Shown: one piece after another, positions 7,451 to 38,259 of the stretch
How the letters are laid out: every line of letters starts with the position of its first letter
Numbering within the stretch: position 1 is the first letter of the stretch
Origin: Candidatus Oscillibacter excrementigallinarum
GTDB lineage: Bacteria > Bacillota > Clostridia > Oscillospirales > Oscillospiraceae
Length of the DNA: 64,000 nucleotides
Direction: 5' to 3'
Assembly (NCBI GenBank): GCA_019118245.1
Contig: DWZJ01000085.1
Location: 2,822-66,821, forward strand
The notes under the pieces: generated by a model
Seen by the model: only the letters and a program-made list of their open reading frames with translations
The model's database searches: none
Told to the model about the DNA's origin: nothing
Translations under genes and position numbers: made by a program

Positions 7451-7885
7451 TCAAGTGTCCGCGCCGCAGAGGAGCCGCAGAGCGTCCAGATATCCCGGCA
7501 GTCCCCGGCCCTTGATGGTGGCGGTGCAGGCCGCCCGGATGTAGGAGACGTGACGGAAGTCCTCCCGGCTGTCCGGGTCCGACACGTGGACCTCCACCGT
7601 GGGGATGCCCACGGCCTTCACGGCGTCCAGCAGGGCCACGCTGGTGTGGGTGTAGGCCGCCGGGTTGATGATGATGCCGTCCACATGGTCAAAGTAGGCC
7701 TGCTGGATGGCATCCACCAGGGCCCCCTCGTGGTTGGACTGGAAGAAGGAGACGGTCACCCCCAGACGGTCCGCCTCCGTCTGGATCATGGATTTCAGAT
7801 CCTCATAGGTGGCCTTGCCGTAGATCTCCGGCTGGCGGATGCCCAGCATGTTCATGTTGGGGCCGTTAATCACCAGAATGTGCAC
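7451..7885 (-). CDS. aroQ: type II 3-dehydroquinate dehydratase
   Basis: LVINGPNMNMLGIRQPEIYG, QSNHEG, INPAAYTHTS, EVHVS. Confidence 0.95.
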   Translation of the reverse strand: MHILVINGPNMNMLGIRQPEIYGKATYEDLKSMIQTEADRLGVTVSFFQSNHEGALVDAIQQAYFDHVDGIIINPAAYTHTSVALLDAVKAVGIPTVEVHVSDPDSREDFRHVSYIRAACTATIKGRGLPGYLDALRLLCGADT

Positions 7886-9110
7886 AAAAATCCCTCCAGA
7901 TGGCGGCGGCAGTGTCCTCCACCGTGCCGTTGTTGTCGATCACCGCGTCCCGGAACCGGGCATACAGAGGGGCCCGCTCCCGCCACATGGCATCAAGGTC
8001 CGCCCCCTGGGACAGGGGCCGCCCCTCGGTGGGCAGCAGGGAGAGGTCCCGCACCAGCTGATAGATGCGGCCGTTCTGATGCAGGGCGCCGTAGTTGGCC
8101 GCCGTTTTGACGATGCCGCCGCCAGTGAGGAGAATCACGCCGGTGCGCTTCCCGGCCTCCTCCGCTGCCGCGGCCTCCCGCGCCCGGAAGCCGGCCTCGC
8201 CCTCTTGGGCGAAGATCTCCGGGATGGAGCAGCCGGCATCGGCCGCGATCATCTGATCCAGATCCACGGCTTCCCGGCCGGTGAGACGGGCCAGAGCCTC
8301 CCCTACCGTGGTTTTGCCGCTGCCGGGCATCCCGATCAGGACGATGTTGGTCATCTCCCGCCGCAGCTGGGCCAGGATGCGCTCGTTCTCGCTGGCGGGA
8401 ATCGCCTTGTCAAAGAACCGCTCCTCCGCCACCACCGCCTGGGCCACCAGCATGGGCAGCCCGTCGGAGCAGGGGATGCCCAGCGCTGACCCCTGGAGCA
8501 GCAGCGCCGTGCGGCGGGGGTTGTAGACCACATCCAGCACTCCCTCCAGGGCCGGGAAGGCCGTCAGGTCCACGGGGGAAGCCCCGTTGCCCGGGTACAT
8601 CCCCACCGGGGTGGCGTTCACCAGCACCTGGGCGTCCGCGTGGCGGGAGAGGTTCTCGTAGTTGTCCGGGCCGGAGCGGGAGATGACGATGATCTCCGCC
8701 GCCCCCTCCTGCCGGGCGGCGGCCTGGGCCGTCAGGGACGCCCCGCCGCTGCCCAGGATGACCACCTTCTTCCCGGCCAGGGAGATGCCCGCCCGGCGGG
8801 CCATGTAGCGGAAGCCGTCGATGTCCGTGTTGTAGCCCACCAGCCTGCCGTCCGGCTGCCGGACGATGGTGTTGACGCTGCCGATGGATTCCGCCGCCGG
8901 GTCGATGGCATCGCACAGGGGCATCACGTCCCGCTTGTAGGGGATGGTGACGTTCAGCCCGCCGATGTCCTCCCGGCGGAGGAAGGGGGCCAGCTGGTCC
9001 GGCTCCAGCTCGATGAGGCGGTATGCGCCGTTGCCCAGGGCGGCGTGGATGGGCACGGACCAGCTGTGGCCCAGCTTCCGGCCCAGCAGGCCGTATACGC
9101 GTTCTCCCAT
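7866..9110 (-). CDS. aroE: shikimate dehydrogenase fused to shikimate kinase
   Basis: N-terminal HSWS, NVTIPYK, GSVNT, YNTD, GSGGA; C-terminal kinase IVLIGMPGSGKTTVG, TGGG, RPL. Confidence 0.9.
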   Translation of the reverse strand: MGERVYGLLGRKLGHSWSVPIHAALGNGAYRLIELEPDQLAPFLRREDIGGLNVTIPYKRDVMPLCDAIDPAAESIGSVNTIVRQPDGRLVGYNTDIDGFRYMARRAGISLAGKKVVILGSGGASLTAQAAARQEGAAEIIVISRSGPDNYENLSRHADAQVLVNATPVGMYPGNGASPVDLTAFPALEGVLDVVYNPRRTALLLQGSALGIPCSDGLPMLVAQAVVAEERFFDKAIPASENERILAQLRREMTNIVLIGMPGSGKTTVGEALARLTGREAVDLDQMIAADAGCSIPEIFAQEGEAGFRAREAAAAEEAGKRTGVILLTGGGIVKTAANYGALHQNGRIYQLVRDLSLLPTEGRPLSQGADLDAMWRERAPLYARFRDAVIDNNGTVEDTAAAIWRDFCAHSGD

Positions 9111-9113
9111 GGG

Positions 9114-10250
9114 TCAGATCTCGGCGTAGTTGCCCAGGAAGTGGAAGCCCTCGCAGCTGCGCTCCAGCTCCTCCAGCATGGGCAGCACGCCGGGGGCCTG
9201 GACGGAGGCCTCCAGCTCCAGGAAGAAGATGAACTCGAAGTTCCGGCCGGTGACGGGGCAGGACTCCAGCTTGGTCATGTTGATGCCCAGGGCCGCCAGC
9301 TTGGAAAGGATCTCATACAGGGCGCCGGGCTTGTTGTCGCAGGCGATGATCAGGCTGATGCGGTTGGCGCCGGCGTAGATGACGGGGTCCTTGGTGACGC
9401 AGATGAAGCGGGTGTAGTTGTTGTCGCTGTCCTGGATCTCGTCGCTGACGGTCTCCAGCCCGTACAGGGCGGCGCAGGGGTGGGAGGAGATGGCGGCCGC
9501 ATGGCGGTCGCCCCGCTCCGCCACCATCTTGGCGGCCATGGCGGTGTTGTCGCAGGGAATGACCCGGACGCCGTTGAGGCCGTTCAGGAACTTGCTGCAC
9601 TGGCCGATGGCCTGCTCGTGGGAGTAGATCTCCGTGATGTCCTCCATCTTCACGCCGGGCAGGGCCAGCAGCTCGTGGCGGATGCACAGCCGGGTGGAGC
9701 GGACGATGGACAGGTTGTGGTCCTGGAGCAGCTCATACACCGCCCGGACGGAGCCGTTGGAGCTGTTCTCGATGGGCAGCACGCCGAACTTGCACAGGCC
9801 AGACTCCACGGCGGACACCACCGCCTGGAAGGTCTTGACATAGACGATGTTGCCACGGGGCAGCAGCCGGTCGCAGGCCACCTGGGAGTTGGCGCCCTCC
9901 ACGCCCTGGCAGGCCACCAGGCCCGTCTGGGGGAACACCTCGTTCATGTCCGCCAGGGCGGCCTTGATCTGGGCGCCTACACGGGTGGGGGCGGAGATCA
10001 GCTCCGCCTGCCGGGACCGGGCCAGCTCGAACAGGGTGGAGAACAGGTGATAGGCAAAACGCTCCTTTTCCCCGGACTTCTCGGTGACCTTGGCCAGGAT
10101 GGCCCGCTCCCGCTCCTTGTTCAGGATGGGGAGATGATGCTCGTTCTTATAGGCGGCCACCTCCTCGGACAGGTCCATGCGCTGCAGGAACAGGTCCAGC
10201 AGCTGGTCGTCCACTGCGTCGATCTTCTCGCGGATCTCAGAAAGTTCCAT
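9114..10250 (-). CDS. pheA: chorismate mutase / prephenate dehydratase (P-protein) with ACT domain
   Basis: IREKIDAVDDQL CM domain; QGVEGANS, PIENS, SHEQAIGQC, NYTRF, ESCP. Confidence 0.94.
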   Translation of the reverse strand: MELSEIREKIDAVDDQLLDLFLQRMDLSEEVAAYKNEHHLPILNKERERAILAKVTEKSGEKERFAYHLFSTLFELARSRQAELISAPTRVGAQIKAALADMNEVFPQTGLVACQGVEGANSQVACDRLLPRGNIVYVKTFQAVVSAVESGLCKFGVLPIENSSNGSVRAVYELLQDHNLSIVRSTRLCIRHELLALPGVKMEDITEIYSHEQAIGQCSKFLNGLNGVRVIPCDNTAMAAKMVAERGDRHAAAISSHPCAALYGLETVSDEIQDSDNNYTRFICVTKDPVIYAGANRISLIIACDNKPGALYEILSKLAALGINMTKLESCPVTGRNFEFIFFLELEASVQAPGVLPMLEELERSCEGFHFLGNYAEI

Positions 10251-11328
10251 GATTTCCCTCCAATAATAAGTCTAGCAAAACGGCGGCGGTGACCGCCTCC
10301 ACCACCGGGACGGCCCGGTGGGCGATGCAGGGGTCGTGCCGGCCGTGGATCACAAGCTCGGTGCCCGCTCCGGCGGACAGGCTGACGGTCCGCTGGGGCC
10401 GGGCGATGGACGGCGTGGGCTTCATAGCCGTCCGCAGGACGATGGGCATCCCGCTGGTGATGCCCCCCAGGATGCCGCCGGCGTGGTTGGTCTCCGCCGC
10501 CACCCGGCCGCCCTCCATGATAAAGGGGTCGTTGTTCTCGGAGCCATGGGCCCGGGCGGCGGCGAAGCCGTCCCCGAACTCCACGCCCTTCACGGCGGGG
10601 ATGCCGAAGAGGGCCGATGCCAGCCGGTTTTCCACCCCGCCGAACATGGGATCCCCCAGACCGGCGGGCATTCCCGTGGCCGCGCACTCGATGACGCCGC
10701 CCACGGAGTCCTGCGCCTGGCGGGCCTCCAGGATCAGCGATTGCATCCGCTCCCCGGCCTGGTCGTCCAGCACCGGGAAGGGCTTGGCGGCAACGGCTTC
10801 AAACAGCTCCCTCGTGGGACGCAGGGGGAAGGGGGTATCCCGCTCCGTGCCCACGGACCAGAGGTGGGCCCCCACGTACACGCCCCGGCGGGCCAAAATC
10901 TGCCTGGCGATGCCGCCGGCGATGCACAGCGGCGCCGTCAGCCGGCCGGAGAAGTGGCCGCCGCCCCGCATGTCCGCTTGACCGCCCCACTTGACGAAGG
11001 CGGTGTAGTCCGCGTGACCGGGCCGGGGCTTGTCCCGGAGTTCCGTATAATCCGAAGAGTGCTGGTCGCTGTTTTCGATGACGGCGCACAGCGGCGCGCC
11101 GCAGGTGACGCCGTTCTCCAGGCCGGAGAGGAATACCGGCGCGTCGGACTCCTTCCGGGCGGTGGAGAGGGGGCTCTTTCCCGGCTTCCGCCGGGCCAGA
11201 AAGGCGTTCAGCTCCTCCAGGTCGATGGCCTCCCCGGCGGGGAGACCGTCCACCACCACGCCGATGGCCTTTCCGTGGGACTGGCCGAAGACGGAGATCT
11301 TCAGCAGATTGCCGAATTCAGAGGACAT
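10237..11328 (-). CDS. aroC: chorismate synthase
   Basis: GQSHG, PRPGHAD, GGGHFSGRLT, NHAGGILGGIT, KPTPS, GRHDPC; ATG 11328 behind GGAGG. Confidence 0.95.
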   Translation of the reverse strand: MSSEFGNLLKISVFGQSHGKAIGVVVDGLPAGEAIDLEELNAFLARRKPGKSPLSTARKESDAPVFLSGLENGVTCGAPLCAVIENSDQHSSDYTELRDKPRPGHADYTAFVKWGGQADMRGGGHFSGRLTAPLCIAGGIARQILARRGVYVGAHLWSVGTERDTPFPLRPTRELFEAVAAKPFPVLDDQAGERMQSLILEARQAQDSVGGVIECAATGMPAGLGDPMFGGVENRLASALFGIPAVKGVEFGDGFAAARAHGSENNDPFIMEGGRVAAETNHAGGILGGITSGMPIVLRTAMKPTPSIARPQRTVSLSAGAGTELVIHGRHDPCIAHRAVPVVEAVTAAVLLDLLLEGNHGTF

Positions 11329-12562
11329 GGATGTCACCTCCCAGGGATCGATAGACCTCCCAAAAGTCCGGGTAGGATTTTTGCACGCACTCCGCGCCCC
11401 GGATGGTCACGGGGCCGGTGCAGGCGGTGGCGGCGATGGCCGCCGCCATGGCGATCCGGTGGTCGTTGGCGCTGTCCACCGTGCCGCCGGTGAGAGGGCC
11501 GCCGTGGACCGTCAGAAAGTCCGGCCCCTCCTCCGCCCGGCCGCCCAGGGCGGCCAGCGCCGCGGCGGTGGTAGAGAGCCGGTCGCTCTCCTTCATCCGC
11601 AGCCGGGCGGCGTTCGTGAAGCAAGTGGTGCCGGAGCGCACCGCCGCCATCACCGCCAGGGGCGGCAGCAGATCCGGGCAGCCGGAGACGTCGATCTCCG
11701 CATCTCCCGGCCGGGCCAGCTTCCAGTAGAGCTCGCTGACCACCTTGTCCCCCTGGGCGGAGTCCGGGTCCAGGCCCCGGGTCTCCACCTGGCTGTCCAG
11801 GAAATCAGCGGCGTACCAGAACCCCGCCTGGGACCAGTCCGCCTCCACCGTGGCCGTAAAGGGCTGGTAGGCCTGGCCGCCGGGGACACAGAGGGTGTTT
11901 TCGTCTGCCCACCGGGTGGTGACGCCGGCGGCGGCCAGTGCCTGCCGGGTCATCTCCAGGTAGTCCCGGCTCTCCAGAGGCGTGGTGGATACCAGAATGG
12001 AGTCCCCGTTCAGCAGGGGGAGGACAAACAGCAGTCCGGTGAAGAACTGGCTGGACACGTTGCCGGGCAGGCGGTACGCGCCGGAGTCCAGAGCCAGGGC
12101 ATCGTACCCCCGGCCGCCGTTCACGGTGAGGACGTTGTCCTCCAGCTTCCAGGCGACGCCCTTCTCCCGGAACAGGTCCTCATAGGGTTTCAGCGGGCGC
12201 TCCATCAGCCGGCCGCGGCCGGTGAAGGACGCCTCCCCCTGCACCAGCAGGGCCACGGGGATGAGGAACCGCAGGGTGGAGCCCGATTCCCCGCAGTCCA
12301 GCAGGGCGTAGGGGGGCGCCATGACGATGCCGTGCCCCAGGCCGTGGACCCGGAGGGCGCCGTCCGGCAGGTCCTCTATCCCGGCCCCCAGGGCGGACAG
12401 GCACCGGCGGGTGGCCTGGATGTCCTGGGACTCCGCCAGGCCGTGGAGGACGCTGACCCCGCCGCTGAGGGCGGCGGCGATCAGCAGCCGGTGGGCCTGG
12501 GACTTGCTGGGGGGCGGCGTCACGGCGCCGGAGAGTTTTTTCGGGATGATCTGAAGGTCCAT
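11318..12562 (-). CDS. aroA: EPSP synthase
   Basis: PSKS, DCGESGSTLRF, VSSQF, RMKESDRL, NDHRIAM. Confidence 0.95.
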   Translation of the reverse strand: MDLQIIPKKLSGAVTPPPSKSQAHRLLIAAALSGGVSVLHGLAESQDIQATRRCLSALGAGIEDLPDGALRVHGLGHGIVMAPPYALLDCGESGSTLRFLIPVALLVQGEASFTGRGRLMERPLKPYEDLFREKGVAWKLEDNVLTVNGGRGYDALALDSGAYRLPGNVSSQFFTGLLFVLPLLNGDSILVSTTPLESRDYLEMTRQALAAAGVTTRWADENTLCVPGGQAYQPFTATVEADWSQAGFWYAADFLDSQVETRGLDPDSAQGDKVVSELYWKLARPGDAEIDVSGCPDLLPPLAVMAAVRSGTTCFTNAARLRMKESDRLSTTAAALAALGGRAEEGPDFLTVHGGPLTGGTVDSANDHRIAMAAAIAATACTGPVTIRGAECVQKSYPDFWEVYRSLGGDIHVL

Positions 12563-12563
12563 G

Positions 12564-13634
12564 TCACCCCTCCAGTCCTGCCCGGATGATGGGCAGCAGG
12601 TCCGCCACCGGCACCTTCCGCAGCTGGCAGGCGCCGATCCGCCGGGGGATCACCAGGGTGATGTCCCCGCCGGCGCGCTTTTTGTCGGAGAGGGCGGCCT
12701 CCGCCAGGGCTTCGGCGGAGAAGTCCGTGCCCGTGGGCAGGCCGTTTTTGGCGAGACAGGCGGCGATCCGCGCCGCGATGGGTTCCTCCGTCCAGCCCAG
12801 GGTCTCGGCGGACCGGGCGATGACGGCCAGCCCCGCCGCCACGGCGTGGCCGTGGGGGATGGAATAGCCGCTGCACTTCTCGACGGCGTGGCCCACGGTG
12901 TGGCCCAGGTTCAGGAGCTTCCGCTCCCCCTGCTCCTTTTCGTCCCGCTCCACCACGCCGGCCTTGTAGGCCACGCACCGGGCGATGACCTCGCCGGGGT
13001 CGGCGGTGAGGGTGCCATCCTCAAACAGGGCGAAGAGGGACTCGTCGGAGAGGACGCCGGTCTTGATGGCCTCGGCGGCCCCGTCGGCGAACACGTCGGG
13101 CGGCAGCGTTTTCAGGCAGTCCGTGTCGCAGATGACGGCGGCGGGCTGGCAGAAGGCCCCGGCCAGGTTCTTCCCGGCCGTCAGGTCCACGGCGGTCTTG
13201 CCGCCCACGGAGGAGTCCACCGCCGCCAAAAGCGAGGTGGGCAGCTGGACGTACCGGATGCCCCGGAGGTAGACGGCGGCGGCAAAGCCCGCCATGTCCC
13301 CCACCACGCCGCCGCCCAGAGCGGCCACGCAGTCGGTGCGGGTCAGATGCTGCGACGCCAGGAACTCCAGCAGCTCTGCCAGGGTGGCGAGGTCCTTGTG
13401 CCTCTCTCCCGCCGGGAACACATGGGAGCAGACCGCAAAGCCCGCATCCTCCAGGGCGGCGGTGACGGTATCCAGGTACAGGGGGGCCACGGTGTCGTCG
13501 GTCAGGACGGCGACCTTCCGCTGTCCCAGCAGGGCGGCCAGGTAGTCTCCGCACCGGCCCAGCAGGCCGCTGCCGATGAGCACATCGTAGGGCGGCTGGA
13601 CCCGGACGGGAATGGTTCGGATGGAGTCAGACAT
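12564..13634 (-). CDS. aroB: 3-dehydroquinate synthase
   Basis: GGGVVGDMAGF, PTSLLAAVDSSVGGKT, EAIK, LNLGHTVGHA, HGHAV. Confidence 0.95.
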   Translation of the reverse strand: MSDSIRTIPVRVQPPYDVLIGSGLLGRCGDYLAALLGQRKVAVLTDDTVAPLYLDTVTAALEDAGFAVCSHVFPAGERHKDLATLAELLEFLASQHLTRTDCVAALGGGVVGDMAGFAAAVYLRGIRYVQLPTSLLAAVDSSVGGKTAVDLTAGKNLAGAFCQPAAVICDTDCLKTLPPDVFADGAAEAIKTGVLSDESLFALFEDGTLTADPGEVIARCVAYKAGVVERDEKEQGERKLLNLGHTVGHAVEKCSGYSIPHGHAVAAGLAVIARSAETLGWTEEPIAARIAACLAKNGLPTGTDFSAEALAEAALSDKKRAGGDITLVIPRRIGACQLRKVPVADLLPIIRAGLEG

Positions 13635-13684
13635 GGAAAAACTCCTTTATATAATAGTGTCGCGCAGCGGCGGCCGGAAATGGG

Positions 13685-14521
13685 TCAGTTGCCGCCGGCG
13701 GTGGCCTTCAGCTCCCGGCCCTCCTTCAACAGGTCGTGGAGCCGCTGGGCGTCCTTGTCCCGCAGGGCGTTCCGGTAATCCGTCAGGTGGCCGATGAGCT
13801 CGTCCAGCTCCTTGGTCAGGAAGTCCTCGTCGTCCAGGAACAGCTCCGTCCACATGTCCTCGTCCAGCCGGGCCACCCGGGTCATGTCCTGGAAGCTGCC
13901 GGCGGAGAAGCCCCGGCGCTTCTGGGCCTCCGGCGACTTCACGTAGGCGCTGGACACGATGTGGGCCAGCTGGGAGGTGAAGGCGATGATGCGGTCGTGC
14001 TCCTCCGGGGTGGAGAAGGTGAGGCCCGCGAAGCCCAGGTCCAGGAAGAAGGCCTTCAGCGTCTCCAGCAGGTGCATATCCGTCCGCTTGTCCGGGGTCA
14101 GGATCATGGAGGCGCCCACATACAGGTCCTCGGTGGAGGCGGTGAAGCCGCCCCGCTCCCGGCCGGCCATGGGGTGGCCGCCGATGTAGGCGAAGCCGCA
14201 GCGCTCCGCGATGGGCGCGATGGCCGCCACCACGGTCCGCTTCACGCCGCACAGGTCCACCAGGATGGCGGATTTGGCGATGCGGTCCGCGTGCTGCCGG
14301 ACCCATTCGATGGCGGCGCCGGGCCGGATGGCCACCAGGATCAGATCCGCCTGGGGCAGATTCTCCGCCGTCAGCGGGGTGTCGATGGCGCCGCACATCC
14401 GGGCCATGGTCATGGTCTCACTGTTCAGGTCCGCGCCCCAGACGGTGTGGGCGGTGCGGTTCTTGATGCTCTTGGCCATGGACCCGCCGATGAGGCCCAG
14501 GCCGACGATGGCGACGTTCAT
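13685..14521 (-). CDS. tyrA: prephenate dehydrogenase
   Basis: GLGLIGGS Rossmann motif, HPMAG, EEHD...TSQLAH, GSFQDMTR. Confidence 0.94.
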   Translation of the reverse strand: MNVAIVGLGLIGGSMAKSIKNRTAHTVWGADLNSETMTMARMCGAIDTPLTAENLPQADLILVAIRPGAAIEWVRQHADRIAKSAILVDLCGVKRTVVAAIAPIAERCGFAYIGGHPMAGRERGGFTASTEDLYVGASMILTPDKRTDMHLLETLKAFFLDLGFAGLTFSTPEEHDRIIAFTSQLAHIVSSAYVKSPEAQKRRGFSAGSFQDMTRVARLDEDMWTELFLDDEDFLTKELDELIGHLTDYRNALRDKDAQRLHDLLKEGRELKATAGGN

Positions 14522-14524
14522 GGC

Positions 14525-15538
14525 TCACTCCTCCAAGGTCTTCATGAAATCATGGAGCTTCAGCAGCTTCTTTGCCACCTGGTCAAACACCTCCGGCTTC
14601 AGGGACTGGGGGCCGTCGCACAGGGCGTGGGCCGGGTCGTTGTGGACCTCGATCAGCAGTCCGTCCGCGCCGGTGGCCACGGCGCCCATGGCCAGGGGGT
14701 CCACCAGCCAGCTCTTGCCGGTGGCGTGGCTGGGGTCAATGATGATGGGCAGGTGGGTCAGCTTCCGCAGCACCGGGATGCAGGCCAGGTCCAGCGTGTT
14801 GCGGGTGTAGCTCTCGAAGGTGCGGATGCCCCGTTCGCAGAGGATCACGTTCTCGTTGCCGCCGGCCATGACGTATTCGGCGCTCATCAGCCACTCCTCA
14901 TAGGTGGCGGACATGCCGCGCTTGATCATGACAGGCTTGTCCTGATGGCCCACGGCCTTGAGGAGGTCAAAGTTCTGCATGTTCCGGGCGCCGATCTGGA
15001 TCACGTCCACATCCTTGAACAGGGGCAGCTGGCTCAGGTCCATTAGCTCCGTCACGATGGGAAGGCCAGTCTCCTGCCGGGCCACCTTCAGGTACTCCAG
15101 GCCGGTGGCCCCCAGGCCCTGGAAGGAGTAGGGGGAGGTCCGGGGCTTGAAGGCGCCGCCCCGCAGCATGGTGGCGCCGCTGGCCTTCACGGCCTTGGCG
15201 ATGGCCACCACCTGCTCCTCGCTCTCCACGGAGCAGGGGCCCGCCATCAGGGTCAGGCTGCCGCCGCCGATCTGGGTGTTGCCCACCTTCACCACCGTGT
15301 CCTCCGGGTGGAACTTCCGGTTGGCGTTCTTGTAGGGCTCCTGGACCCGCTTCACGTCCTCCACGATGTCCAGGGCGGCGATCAGGTCGATGTCCAGCTG
15401 GCTGGTGTCGCCCACCAGGCCCAGGATCGTGTGGGCCTCGCCGATGCTGGTGTGGATGATGATGCCCTTTTCCTGGAGCCAGGAGATCAGGCTCTCCAGC
15501 TGTTCTCGGTTGGGGTTGGATTTCAGAACGACGATCAT
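14525..15538 (-). CDS. aroF: DAHP synthase type I-beta with N-terminal regulatory domain
   Basis: AGPCSVES, RGGAFKPRTSPYSFQG, QIGARNMQN, ERGIRTF, DPSH. Confidence 0.95.
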   Translation of the reverse strand: MIVVLKSNPNREQLESLISWLQEKGIIIHTSIGEAHTILGLVGDTSQLDIDLIAALDIVEDVKRVQEPYKNANRKFHPEDTVVKVGNTQIGGGSLTLMAGPCSVESEEQVVAIAKAVKASGATMLRGGAFKPRTSPYSFQGLGATGLEYLKVARQETGLPIVTELMDLSQLPLFKDVDVIQIGARNMQNFDLLKAVGHQDKPVMIKRGMSATYEEWLMSAEYVMAGGNENVILCERGIRTFESYTRNTLDLACIPVLRKLTHLPIIIDPSHATGKSWLVDPLAMGAVATGADGLLIEVHNDPAHALCDGPQSLKPEVFDQVAKKLLKLHDFMKTLEE

Positions 15539-15572
15539 ATGGGATTCCTCCTAAAATAAGTTCGACTGGTAC

Positions 15573-15605
15573 AAAAAAGACCCGCAGCCGGTTCGGCTGC
15601 GGGTC
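15573..15605 (-). terminator. attenuator terminator of the aro operon leader
   Basis: Minus strand GACCCGCAGCCG-AAC-CGGCTGCGGGTC-TTTTTT (12-bp stem plus U6), between the leader peptide stop and aroF. Confidence 0.9.
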
Positions 15606-15633
15606 GTCATGCACTGATAGCCTTCTAAGGGTG

Positions 15634-15738
15634 TCAGACACGATCACGCACGTTTTCAGCCAAACCGAAATAAGCCTTACCATAAAAGTAGGTAAAGCTA
15701 AAGTAACGGTATTCGGCAGAACGGGCGATGTTGGTCAT
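15634..15738 (-). CDS. Tyr/Phe-rich leader peptide MTNIARSAEYRYFSFTYFYGKAYFGLAENVRDRV (34 aa)
   Basis: Hand-translated, not in ORF track; GGAAAGGAA SD upstream of ATG 15738; 5 Tyr + 4 Phe within codons 10-24; TGA at 15634-15636. Confidence 0.88.
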   Translation of the reverse strand: MTNIARSAEYRYFSFTYFYGKAYFGLAENVRDRV

Positions 15739-15772
15739 GACTGGGTTCCTTTCCGAGTCCTTTGATAGATTC

Positions 15773-15781
15773 AGGATAGCA
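15773..15781 (-). promoter_or_regulatory. possible extended -10 promoter for the aro leader
   Basis: TGcTATCCT on minus strand about 35 nt upstream of the leader ATG; -35 weak. Confidence 0.4.
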
Positions 15782-15867
15782 CCAGAAAACGCAAAAGGAA
15801 ATTGGCAATGCTTCCAAAGAATCGCGCGGCGCGGGAATGCGCGCTGTGCGCTTTTCCCAAACGGAGC

Positions 15868-16446
15868 TTACGCGGCCGCGGGTGCCGCCGGGAGGGCGCC
15901 GTCCTCCGCCGGCAGGCAGCCGGCCATCAGGATGGAGGTGGCCTTCAGGATGAACTGCACGTCCTTGCGCATATCCGCCACGCCGGCCATGTACTGCCGG
16001 TGCAGCTCCTGCAGAGCGCCCGCCACGTCCTGGCGGAACTTTTCCCGCCGCAGGGCCCGGGTGGTCAGATATTCCTCCAGATAGGCCCGGAGGTCCGTCT
16101 CATACTGGTGGTGGCAGAGCATGCTGTCGGGATAATTCTCGTTGTGGGGGTAGGTGAAGGCATCTGCCAGATAGTGGGTCAGCTTGCCCAGGGTGTAATA
16201 CTGCCAGATGGTCCACCGGTCCCGGCGCTGGAGCCGGGAGATGCGGGAGTAGATGTAGCACTGGGAGTTGGAGTAGTTATGCCCCCGGAGCTTATAGGCC
16301 CGGAGAGAGCCCTTCAAATAGGTGAGGGGGTTGCAGTCCGGCTGAAAGGAGCCGAACAGGAAAGCGAGCTCGAATCGTCTGGCCCGGAACCCCTGGACAT
16401 TTTCCAGCAGGGTCGAGGCCAGCAGCTTGTGACTGCGTTTCTGCAA
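15868..16446 (-). CDS. zinc-dependent phospholipase C family protein
   Basis: N-terminal SH, GSFQPD, HNY, GKLTHYLADAFTYPHN, HHQYE Zn-ligand pattern; TTG start behind GGAGGT. Confidence 0.75.
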   Translation of the reverse strand: MQKRSHKLLASTLLENVQGFRARRFELAFLFGSFQPDCNPLTYLKGSLRAYKLRGHNYSNSQCYIYSRISRLQRRDRWTIWQYYTLGKLTHYLADAFTYPHNENYPDSMLCHHQYETDLRAYLEEYLTTRALRREKFRQDVAGALQELHRQYMAGVADMRKDVQFILKATSILMAGCLPAEDGALPAAPAAA

Positions 16447-16644
16447 AATGCACCTCCATGGGAAAAATTCAAGAGCAACGCAAGTATAACACGGCCTTTA
16501 CGTCGGAAGCAAGCAAAATCATTTGAAATTTGTGTTAACAAACTTTGCAAAAAAGAGGATTGTGCCGCAGCGGGTTCTGCGGTAAAATAAGTGGGAACTG
16601 ACGATAAACGCGCCGCCCCGCCGGGTGCGGCAAAGGAGGATACC

Positions 16645-17997
16645 ATGGCAACACTGACACCTACCCGCCGGGGCCGCTGCGCCGGCATGGGGGACTGGCA
16701 GGCCCAGTATCAGGCCCTGCGGATGACCGCCCGGGAGGCGGCGGAGCTGATCCGGGACGGAGAGCAGATGGCATTTGCGGCCATGTCCAACTGGCCCTGG
16801 GAGCTGGACGGCGCCCTGGCGGAGCGGCTGCTGGAGACCGGCGGCCATGTGGCCATCTACGGGCACTTCATCCCCGCCGGGGCCCGGCTGCTGACGCCGG
16901 AGCTGGCGGGACAGGTGACCTATGACTCCAACTTCTACGGCGTGGAACGGGGCCTGGAGCCCATGGGCAACGTCCACTACGCCCCCTCCAACCTGAGCCA
17001 GACCCCGGCCTGGCTCCTGGCCCGGCGTCCCCGGGTGGCGGCGCTGACCTGCTCCCTCCCGGATGAGAACGGGTGGATGAGCCGCTCCCTGTGGGGCACG
17101 GCCCTGAGCCGAAGGGTGCTGGAGCAGTGCGAGGTGGTGCTGGTGGAGGTGAACCCCCGGATGCCCAATATCCCCAGTGACGGGGAGGCCCACACCCGCC
17201 TCCATGTCTCGGAGGTGGACGGGATCATCGAATCCAGCCGCCCTCTGGTGGAGACGCCCATCGCGGAGGGAAATGAGACGGACAGCCGCATCGCGGGATA
17301 CATCGCGGACCTGGTGCCGGACGGCGCCTGCATCCAGCTGGGCCTGGGCGGGCTGGCCAACACCGTGGGCGAGTGCCTGGCCCACGCGGGAAAGCGGGAT
17401 CTGGGCGTCCACACGGAGATCCTGAGCACCGGCGTCATGGAGCTGATGCGCCGGGGCGTGGTGAACAACAGCCGCAAACAGACCTGCCCGGGGCGGAGCG
17501 TATACGCCAACATGGTGGGCGGGCCGGAGCTGTGGGACTTTGCCAATGACAATCCCGCTTTCTGCCAGAAGGAGATCGACTGGGTGAACGATGCCCGGAA
17601 CATCGCCCGGAACGACCAGGTGGTCTCCATCAACAACGCCATGGAGATCGACCTCACCGGCCAGGTGAACGCGGAGACCATCGGCCCCCGGCAGTACTCC
17701 GGCACCGGCGGCCAGCTGGAGTGGGTAGTCGGCTCCCAGTGGTCCAGGGGCGGAAAGAGCATCCTGGCCCTCCGCTCCAGCTACCGGGACAAGGCGGGGG
17801 TGCTCCACTCCAAGATCGTGCCCCAGCTGGCACCGGGCAGCGTGGTGACCACGCCCCGCACCTGCGTGCAGTACGTGGTGACGGAGTACGGCGTGGCGGA
17901 CCTGAAGTACAAGAGCGTGGTGGAGCGGGCCCGGGCCCTCATCGCCATCGCCCACCCGGACTTCCGGCGGGAGCTGGAGCGGCAGATGCCCCTTTGA
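16645..17997 (+). CDS. acetyl-CoA hydrolase/CoA-transferase family protein (4-hydroxybutyrate/butyryl-CoA transferase-like)
   Basis: IQLGLGG, GVHTE, INNAMEIDLTGQVNAE, SGTGGQLEW, VVTEYGVADL, IAIAHPDFR; ATG 16645 behind AAGGAGG. Confidence 0.9.
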   Translation: MATLTPTRRGRCAGMGDWQAQYQALRMTAREAAELIRDGEQMAFAAMSNWPWELDGALAERLLETGGHVAIYGHFIPAGARLLTPELAGQVTYDSNFYGVERGLEPMGNVHYAPSNLSQTPAWLLARRPRVAALTCSLPDENGWMSRSLWGTALSRRVLEQCEVVLVEVNPRMPNIPSDGEAHTRLHVSEVDGIIESSRPLVETPIAEGNETDSRIAGYIADLVPDGACIQLGLGGLANTVGECLAHAGKRDLGVHTEILSTGVMELMRRGVVNNSRKQTCPGRSVYANMVGGPELWDFANDNPAFCQKEIDWVNDARNIARNDQVVSINNAMEIDLTGQVNAETIGPRQYSGTGGQLEWVVGSQWSRGGKSILALRSSYRDKAGVLHSKIVPQLAPGSVVTTPRTCVQYVVTEYGVADLKYKSVVERARALIAIAHPDFRRELERQMPL

Positions 17998-18111
17998 CCG
18001 TCGGTCCGCATTTCCTTGGATGAACCTGACAAGGTCCCGCCTGCAAGCGGCGGGGCCTTGTGCTGTTTTGCTGAATTTTGCCATGGCGGCGGGAAAAGGG
18101 GGCGGAGGGAT

Positions 18112-23118: not shown

Positions 23119-23382
23119 AAAAACGCAGCTTCCTCCTAAAATTTTAGGACGAATAGCTGCGATCCGCGGTGCCACCTAATTTGCCCCCGTATGGGGACCC
23201 CTTTCAAAGCTCCAACAAGCCCGTGTGAGATAACGATCACAACTCGTCGCACTTACTAACGGAGACCCGCGTTCGGATTGCAGCTACGGAGTGTTCTTCC
23301 CGCGGACTCTTTGTACAGGGTTCCCACTGCCCCCCGCTCACTGAACCGGAACTTCCACGGTACTTTTCTCCATCAACGCCTT
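23119..23382 (-). ncRNA. T-box riboswitch with Asn (AAC) specifier, plus terminator
   Basis: Stem I start GGCGTTGATGGAGAAAAGTA, 3' side AAG-AAC-A-CTCC (AAC at 23293-23295); T-box AATTAGGTGGCACCGCG (23165-23181); terminator GCAGCT...TCCTAAAATTTTAGGA...AGCTGCGTTTTT. Confidence 0.88.
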
Positions 23383-23559
23383 TGCTGATGTCTGATTGTC
23401 CTCGATGTTTGAATCGATGGTAGAAGTCTATCACTATGGCCGGAGCACTGTCAATGTGAAAATTCACAAAATCGGGCTGCGTTTTTTGACGCACTTTTTG
23501 GGACAGCTGCCCCCTGGATGGACAGCGGCGGAGTGCGTCCGCACTCCGCCGCCAGTGGT

Positions 23560-37896: not shown

Positions 37897-37984
37897 TGGT
37901 GCGCGAGGCGGGACTTGAACCCGCACGTCCGTAATGGACACTAGAACCTGAATCTAGCGAGTCTGCCAATTCCACCACTCGCGC
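37897..37984 (-). tRNA. tRNA-Leu(CAG)
   Basis: 88 nt cloverleaf, anticodon arm CTAGA-TTCAGGT-TCTAG, long variable arm, GGTTCAAGTCC T-loop, encoded CCA. Confidence 0.97.
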
Positions 37985-38054
37985 ATATATGAACTTCTGC
38001 TCCCGTTCGATCCCCGAGGGGCGTTCCACCGGAAGGGAGCCCTCCGGTGGAACA

Positions 38055-38142
38055 TGGTGCGCGAGGCGGGACTTGAACCCGCACGTCCGTAATGGACACT
38101 AGAACCTGAATCTAGCGAGTCTGCCAATTCCACCACTCGCGC
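38055..38142 (-). tRNA. tRNA-Leu(CAG), identical copy
   Basis: Sequence identical to 37897-37984. Confidence 0.97.
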
Positions 38143-38172
38143 ATAGAGCGGCATCTTTTCCAGGATGTCAAA

Positions 38173-38259
38173 TGGTGCGGCTGACGGGATTTGAACCCAC
38201 ACGTCGATTCGGACACCAGCACCTCAAGCTGGCCTGTCTACCAGTTCCAGCACAGCCGC
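38173..38259 (-). tRNA. tRNA-Leu(GAG)
   Basis: 87 nt, anticodon arm CCAGC-TTGAGGT-GCTGG, GGTTCAAATCC, encoded CCA. Confidence 0.97.

Follow-up and report, generated by a model that had tools for sequence, protein, structure and literature searches.

The aroF-tyrA-aroBAC-pheA-aroEK operon of Candidatus Oscillibacter excrementigallinarum is, with a probability that we put at about 85% from sequence comparison and folding, preceded by a ribosome-mediated leader-peptide transcription attenuator, and the Tyr/Phe pathway is very probably switched on only when ribosomes stall for lack of Tyr or Phe. The element lies on the minus strand of the 64,000-nucleotide stretch of contig DWZJ01000085.1 analysed here (the window), and its parts are collected in Table 1. 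The sequence hallmarks of the leader-attenuator class are found together at this site, namely a short ORF preceded by a Shine-Dalgarno (SD) sequence, a cluster of cognate codons, a terminator, an antiterminator and an anti-antiterminator with a 5' arm that a stalled ribosome covers in a masking simulation. The E. coli pheL and trpL regions are leader-peptide attenuators, and their logic, which a first-pass annotation had proposed for this site, is supported by a conserved upstream ORF (uORF), by a covarying antiterminator and terminator, and by an anti-antiterminator helix added here.

The leader, its RNA structures and the operon behind them

The leader ORF had been described as 34 codons long, with its own SD, nine Tyr/Phe codons and no Trp codon, and the present analysis agrees on each of these points as well as on the translation of the peptide. 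The purine-rich SD and the ATG of the leader are conserved (alignment A1), and scans of the leader peptide against NCBIfam and Pfam gave no match. Upstream of the leader, a GTG(C/T)TAT(G/C)CT block and its spacing are conserved among upstream regions of the same genus. The putative promoter in Table 1 is drawn from this conservation only and is proposed with low confidence, because a consensus promoter scan of the leader region returned no sigma-70 match. Transcription may start near 15766, and the leader of 34 codons would then begin about 30 nt 3' of the transcript start.

The 12-bp terminator with its T6 run, previously placed 28 nt past the leader stop, was called independently by a terminator scan. 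The antiterminator suggested earlier is likewise reproduced, with leader strand UCGGUUUGGCUG pairing with CAGCCGAACCGG over 12 bp that include two U-G pairs, as is the hairpin formed by AGCUUUACC and GGUAAGGCU over the control codons, which is probably a pause or nucleation hairpin. The MFE fold contains a long imperfect hairpin, the anti-antiterminator, whose 5' arm consists of codons 4-16 and whose 3' arm holds the antiterminator strand. Between the stop codon and the terminator lies a middle hairpin that is nested inside the antiterminator; it is variable in sequence and weakly supported, as it is paired to 49-58% (alignment A2). The leader region folds with a z of -6.0 against dinucleotide shuffles, none of which matched it (0/200). 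Before the terminator is formed, the anti-antiterminator and the middle hairpin together amount to -42.8 kcal/mol, and the antiterminator with the middle and inner hairpins to -40.9 kcal/mol, so that the two pre-terminator states are nearly balanced.

The operon that follows reads, by NCBIfam matches, aroF-tyrA-aroB-aroA-aroC-pheA (CM/PDT)-aroE/aroK fusion. Its products are DAHP synthase, prephenate dehydrogenase, those of aroB, aroA and aroC, chorismate mutase/prephenate dehydratase, and a shikimate dehydrogenase-shikimate kinase fusion, and the operon encodes the common pathway together with both the Tyr and the Phe branches. The earlier statement that it holds no trp genes stands; however, it does not end in tyrA and pheA as had also been stated, because tyrA is gene 2 and pheA gene 6. 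The aroF gene is 98% identical to that of 'Ca. Oscillibacter excrementavium' and 88% identical to that of O. valericigenes Sjm18-20, a strain in which the element is present as well (L034:1011-1176). On the other side of the attenuator, upstream ORFs at 15868-16446 (-) and 16519-18084 (-), of 192 and 521 aa, have no NCBIfam match. In four chicken-gut metatranscriptome runs inspected over 14800-16299, assembled contigs cover the upstream gene and the intergenic region, and they mark no start or end of transcription. Metatranscriptome run X2 has unitigs that break at the terminator (15566-15595), with a word depth of 18.4 upstream and 8.1 just downstream, which hints at termination but is far too weak to count.

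Table 1. Positions of the attenuator parts, of the operon genes and of two related copies; positions are those of the window, except for the last row, where they refer to the contigs named.
Feature	Positions	Strand	Remarks
Putative promoter	15773..15801	-	-35-like TTTCCT 15801-15796; 17-nt spacer; TG-extended -10 TGcTATCCT 15781-15773
Leader SD region GGAAAGGAA	15746..15754	-	AAGGA core 8 nt 5' of ATG at 15738
Leader ORF, 34 codons + stop	15634..15738	-	Tyr/Phe control codons 10, 12, 13, 15, 17, 18, 19 (and 23, 24)
Anti-antiterminator, long imperfect hairpin	15645..15730	-	MFE fold; -31.3 kcal/mol
Inner hairpin AGCUUUACC/GGUAAGGCU	15673..15699	-	over control codons; -11.6 kcal/mol
Antiterminator 5' strand UCGGUUUGGCUG	15657..15668	-	codons 24-27
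Middle hairpin	15607..15643	-	stop codon to terminator; -11.5 kcal/mol; nested inside antiterminator
Antiterminator 3' strand CAGCCGAACCGG	15588..15599	-	upper 5' arm, loop and first 3 nt of 3' arm of terminator
Intrinsic terminator	15573..15605	-	stem 15605-15579, 12 pairs (10 G-C), 3-nt loop, T6; -26.3 kcal/mol
Regulated operon (candidate)	7866..15538	-	NCBIfam matches; adjacent genes abut or overlap
aroF	14525-15538	-	start codon at 15538
tyrA	13685-14521	-	
aroB	12564-13634	-	
aroA	11318-12562	-	
aroC	10237-11337	-	
pheA (CM/PDT)	9114-10250	-	
aroE-aroK fusion	7866-9110	-	
Attenuator copies in genome G145	L129:1497-1681; L128:1001-1169	-; +	

Conservation of the uORF and covariation of the helices

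Conservation of the uORF, which the first-pass annotation had named as a check on its proposal, was assessed in 107 regions upstream of aroF, each no shorter than 300 nt, taken from 30 related genomes and 80 public contigs. In 79/107 of these regions an ORF of 10-60 codons follows an SD and has six or more Tyr/Phe within a 10-residue window, compared with none of their reverse complements and 0.2 per set of dinucleotide shuffles, and none of the other amino-acid pairs tested rises above 8 loci. A terminator stands between the leader and aroF in 78/79 of the uORF-bearing loci. The leaders range from 14 to 53 codons, and the aromatic run is the sole feature common to them; before aroF they contain on average 3.9 Tyr, 4.6 Phe and 0.17 Trp, with any Trp at all in 13/78. 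Within the Oscillibacter group, changes at the control positions are almost exclusively between Tyr and Phe (for example, 16 Tyr to 12 Phe and 17 Phe to 8 Tyr) or synonymous (TAC/TAT, TTT/TTC), a pattern expected under selection on the codons and not on the peptide.

Contigs labelled as Alloprevotella, Spirochaetales, Bacteroidaceae, Kiritimatiellae and Lentisphaerae (L044, L049, L080, L082, L084, L098) carry a Clostridia-like aroF that is 61-68% identical, and part of them also have aromatic-rich uORFs; the presence of such an aroF on contigs of other phyla could reflect horizontal transfer or mis-binning. In a member of another family of the same order (L030), a T-box-core-like GGGTGGTAACACGG and a terminator lie ~190-170 nt 5' of aroF with no leader peptide, and this would be a sensor swap at the same gene, a putative T-box taking the place of the leader peptide. 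The second aroF paralogues of two genomes, L133 (G034:C2) and L132 (G026:C45), have no leader, and both are found inside other operons; one of the two follows a trpF-like gene, apparently in a trp operon, and the other a shikimate-kinase-like gene.

Pairing was counted in a MAFFT alignment of 30 Oscillibacter-group leaders and, more widely, in a covariance-model alignment of about 46-47 sequences. The covariance model was built from the 30-leader alignment and encodes the anti-antiterminator and the terminator, the antiterminator being left out; it recovers divergent members 5' of aroF with E-values to 1e-18 and beyond. By these counts the antiterminator and the terminator both covary, as the earlier proposal required of its stems. 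The terminator is 94.9% paired in the 30 leaders, with double-sided changes at 11/12 pairs, and 95% paired in the wider set, with such changes at 12/12. For the antiterminator, 90.8% pairing and double changes at 6/12 pairs are seen in the 30 leaders, matched by 0/500 shuffles, and pairing ranges from 15 to 51% when the partner is slid. In the wider set it is 86.4% paired (23-46% with the partner slid), with 41 double-change cells against 15.8 +/- 3.1 after shuffling (0/500). The inner hairpin hardly varies and is paired to 98-99%, with compensatory replacements of A-U by G-C; it might also do more than pair and act, for instance, as a binding site or pause signal.

In addition, codons 8-11 (GCCGAAUACCG) pair with the antiterminator strand in a helix that was absent from the earlier annotation. 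This extension of the anti-antiterminator is about 80% paired in the wider set and has double-sided changes at 9/9 pairs. The leader strand of the antiterminator thus covaries with two partners, a segment upstream of it and a segment of the terminator, which gives the 1:2 / 2:3 / 3:4 topology of trpL. A matched triple change is seen in locus L037, where the leader changes from GGCUG to GGCCA, the terminator 5' arm from CAGCC to CGGCC and the 3' arm from GGCUG to GGCCG. In an alignment-free comparison of leaders with terminator halves, corrected for row and column effects, duplexes between a leader and its own terminator half are better than expectation by 5.0 kcal/mol, compared with +0.6 +/- 2.6 for unrelated terminators. 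The own terminator is in the best 10% for 82% of the leaders, a figure that, like the other covariation and duplex statistics, overstates independence because the sequences compared are mutually related, though they span many families.

Ribosome position and alternative explanations

Folding under a ribosome mask, the other computational check proposed at the outset, succeeded in one form and failed in another. The equilibrium fold of the full transcript contains the terminator at every ribosome position; as full-transcript folding cannot discriminate between the states, a transcript cut before the terminator 3' arm was folded instead, with a mask that reached from -15 to +11 nt relative to the A site, and this one does switch with the position of the ribosome. 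While the A site is anywhere from codon 2 to codon 21, the antiterminator has a probability of at least 0.83; at codons 23-32 this drops to ~0. Since the complete terminator always wins at equilibrium, the attenuation decision must be kinetic, as in classical systems. With no ribosome the cut transcript, too, prefers the antiterminator (P = 0.94), so that the default without translation would hinge on which structure folds first.

The spacing of the parts was compared across loci. From the last Tyr/Phe codon to the antiterminator strand the median distance is 17 nt (IQR 13-19; 78 loci), and it is 10-24 nt in 64/78, which in the masking model puts the start of the antiterminator strand just clear of a stalled ribosome. 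Here the antiterminator strand is followed by the stop codon after 22 nt, and among loci the interval between the two ranges from -43 to +47 nt; occlusion of the strand by a ribosome that terminates is for this reason not a family-wide rule.

The proposed switch would operate between two states that the leader RNA can adopt. In the first, the anti-antiterminator, with codons 4-16 as its 5' arm, sequesters UCGGUUUGGCUG and leaves the 12-bp terminator free to form; in the second, UCGGUUUGGCUG forms the antiterminator by pairing with the terminator loop and the upper part of its 5' arm. When Tyr-tRNA or Phe-tRNA is scarce, the ribosome would stall at codons 10-19 and cover the 5' arm of the anti-antiterminator, so that the antiterminator strand would be free to pair with the newly transcribed terminator arm and transcription would read through into aroF. 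With Tyr-tRNA and Phe-tRNA both charged, it would pass on to codons 22-32 and occlude the antiterminator strand; behind it the anti-antiterminator would re-form, the terminator would fold, and transcription would stop at the T6 run. Without translation the anti-antiterminator would presumably form first, making termination the default in that case as well.

The same helices could in principle serve a translation-independent RNA switch in which the ligand of the hairpins is a protein, tRNA or small molecule and the Tyr/Phe frame is a by-product of U/A-rich pairing. The near-invariance in nucleotides of the inner hairpin and its flanks across families would be in keeping with such a switch, as would the many T-boxes of the source genome and the use of TTT for Phe in the leader, which, set against the preference of the operon for TTC (64:15), suggests RNA constraints. 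However, no Rfam family, including the T-box, matches the region at E <= 10, and the enrichment in aromatic codons is confined to one frame, which always has an SD and a start codon in front of it, and neither the opposite strand nor the shuffles show it. Substitutions moreover retain the aromatic codon class, and a tyrA-linked paralogue goes over to Tyr codons, all of which makes a switch of this kind very unlikely. Least credible, if only slightly, is a function of the peptide itself, either as an aromatic-rich product or as a TnaC-like arrest peptide whose signal would be free Tyr/Phe inside the ribosome tunnel and not tRNA charging. Such a role would agree with the conservation of AEY.YFSFTYF.GKA within the genus, yet the peptide varies from 14 to 53 residues across lineages with the Tyr/Phe run alone kept, its conserved non-aromatic residues fall on paired RNA segments, and a terminator and antiterminator are always attached.

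Translation or mRNA stability might also be the main level of control, or the terminator might be a leaky constitutive brake, with no Tyr/Phe-responsive switch at all. Contigs in RNA libraries do cross the terminator, as such a brake would allow. Yet the terminator is strong (-26.3 kcal/mol, T6), lies clear of the aroF SD, 34 nt ahead of the start codon of that gene, and covariation between the antiterminator and the terminator arm would be purposeless in a constitutive terminator; we consider this arrangement, too, quite improbable.

Specificity, spread and relation to known systems

One genome, the Clostridiales MAG G145 (= G178), has two copies of the attenuator (Table 1). In the copy 5' of aroF-aroB the leader is mixed (6 Tyr, 4 Phe), and in the one 5' of a detached tyrA it encodes 9 Tyr and 1 Phe (...AAAYYYLSLVYYYYYYDKAF...). 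The codons thus appear retuned to the downstream product, which is the strongest single argument for codon-level sensing. A weaker member in genome G301 (L152, 1501-1689 (-); E about 9e-5) has a Tyr/Phe-rich leader 5' of a pheA (CM/PDT) homologue, followed by aroB. That one leader may sense both Tyr and Phe, as first suggested, fits the interchange of Tyr and Phe codons and the Tyr-only paralogue before tyrA; dual sensing is nevertheless not guaranteed, because the aroR leader of Corynebacterium glutamicum is reported to respond to Phe limitation only (PMC11802643).

The narrow covariance model finds one true copy in the source genome; weak matches elsewhere in this genome and in G072 were rejected as plain terminators. 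In an order-wide sample, matches occur in at least 39/151 genomes and at least 17/30 families, and in a class-wide sample in at least 14/151 genomes, these counts being lower bounds. The best order-wide matches (L117-L127 and three further places) lie directly 5' of aroF, except for the tyrA copy of G145, and 10/13 of the class-wide matches outside the source genome lie 5' of aroF-tyrA or aroF-aroB. Taken together, matches to the model are found nearly always directly 5' of aroF and once 5' of pheA. A whole-genome scan for leader-peptide candidates returned no second Tyr/Phe leader. A Trp-rich mini-ORF considered as a trp leader was discarded as an artefact, lying inside one of three tandem tRNA genes (window 37900-38259 (-)).

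No Rfam 15 family matches 15560-15800 at E <= 10, and this includes the T-box (RF00230) and the leader families such as Phe_leader, Trp_leader and leu/phe leader. The sole match in a 3.5-kb Rfam search, a radC match upstream, was set aside as due to chance. The T-box mentioned in the first-pass annotation is present at 23142-23385 (-) with 98 bits, above the Rfam gathering score, and the genome has 18 T-box matches, of which 9 exceed the Rfam cut-off; T-boxes and a leader-peptide attenuator thus coexist in the source genome.

Like E. coli pheL-pheA and trpL-trpEDCBA, the element places its control codons in the 5' arm of 1:2, with 2:3 as the antiterminator, 3:4 as the terminator and termination as the presumed default. 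It differs from both in showing no sequence or covariance-model similarity to them, in the proposed sensing of two amino acids, and in the predicted control of the common pathway together with both branches; unlike in trpL, a ribosome at the stop codon does not mask segment 2.

The closest described case is aroR of C. glutamicum, a validated Phe-Tyr-Phe leader before aroF at which stalling raises transcription of the operon (Neshat et al. 2014, via PMC11802643). As here, a mixed Phe/Tyr leader precedes a DAHP synthase gene. Only Phe limitation is reported to have had an effect experimentally, and aroR is from Actinobacteria and has one Phe-Tyr-Phe triplet, compared with 7-9 aromatic codons here. 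In Acholeplasma, the predicted uORFC-13-1, a uORF with Phe codons 5' of aroF (Brewer et al. 2021, PMC8632094), resembles the present element by description in that the uORF adjoins an intrinsic terminator before aroF in a Bacillota-related lineage; its 24 representatives come only from Acholeplasma and environmental DNA, and its U-run codes for at least one Phe (PMC8632094). His leader-peptide attenuators have been described in the B. cereus group, Peptostreptococcaceae and Erysipelotrichales (PMC2965389, PMC9413887) and, as here, are classical leader peptides that at some amino-acid operons of Firmicutes take the place of T-boxes, although they concern another amino acid, other operons and unrelated sequences.

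Given these precedents, the novelty claimed in the first-pass annotation was overstated: leader peptides are known in Firmicutes (PMC2965389, PMC9413887), a uORF before aroF has been predicted in Acholeplasma (PMC8632094), and aroR is reported as validated (PMC11802643). With the mechanism a textbook one and an analogue validated in C. glutamicum, the element would be only a mild surprise to a specialist. The Clostridia family itself appears uncatalogued, as neither the mini-ORF nor the RNA is annotated or represented in Rfam, Pfam or NCBIfam, and no description of it was found in the literature searched, which covered few subscription journals.

It is possible, if doubtful, that the element belongs to one large and old Clostridia RNA family that was transferred to other gut phyla and whose specificity is retuned by editing of the control codons; the pattern may then be a mixed Tyr/Phe leader before aroF and a Tyr-only leader before a detached tyrA. 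If true, this would amount to a natural modular sensor with programmable specificity. For the aromatic amino-acid genes of Firmicutes, the attenuator described here would correct the common picture of control by T-boxes, TRAP or repressors alone, as we propose that many gut Clostridia gate the whole Tyr/Phe pathway by a classical leader peptide instead. A covariance model of the leader family would improve annotation and help to predict which gut anaerobes make Tyr and Phe and which import them.
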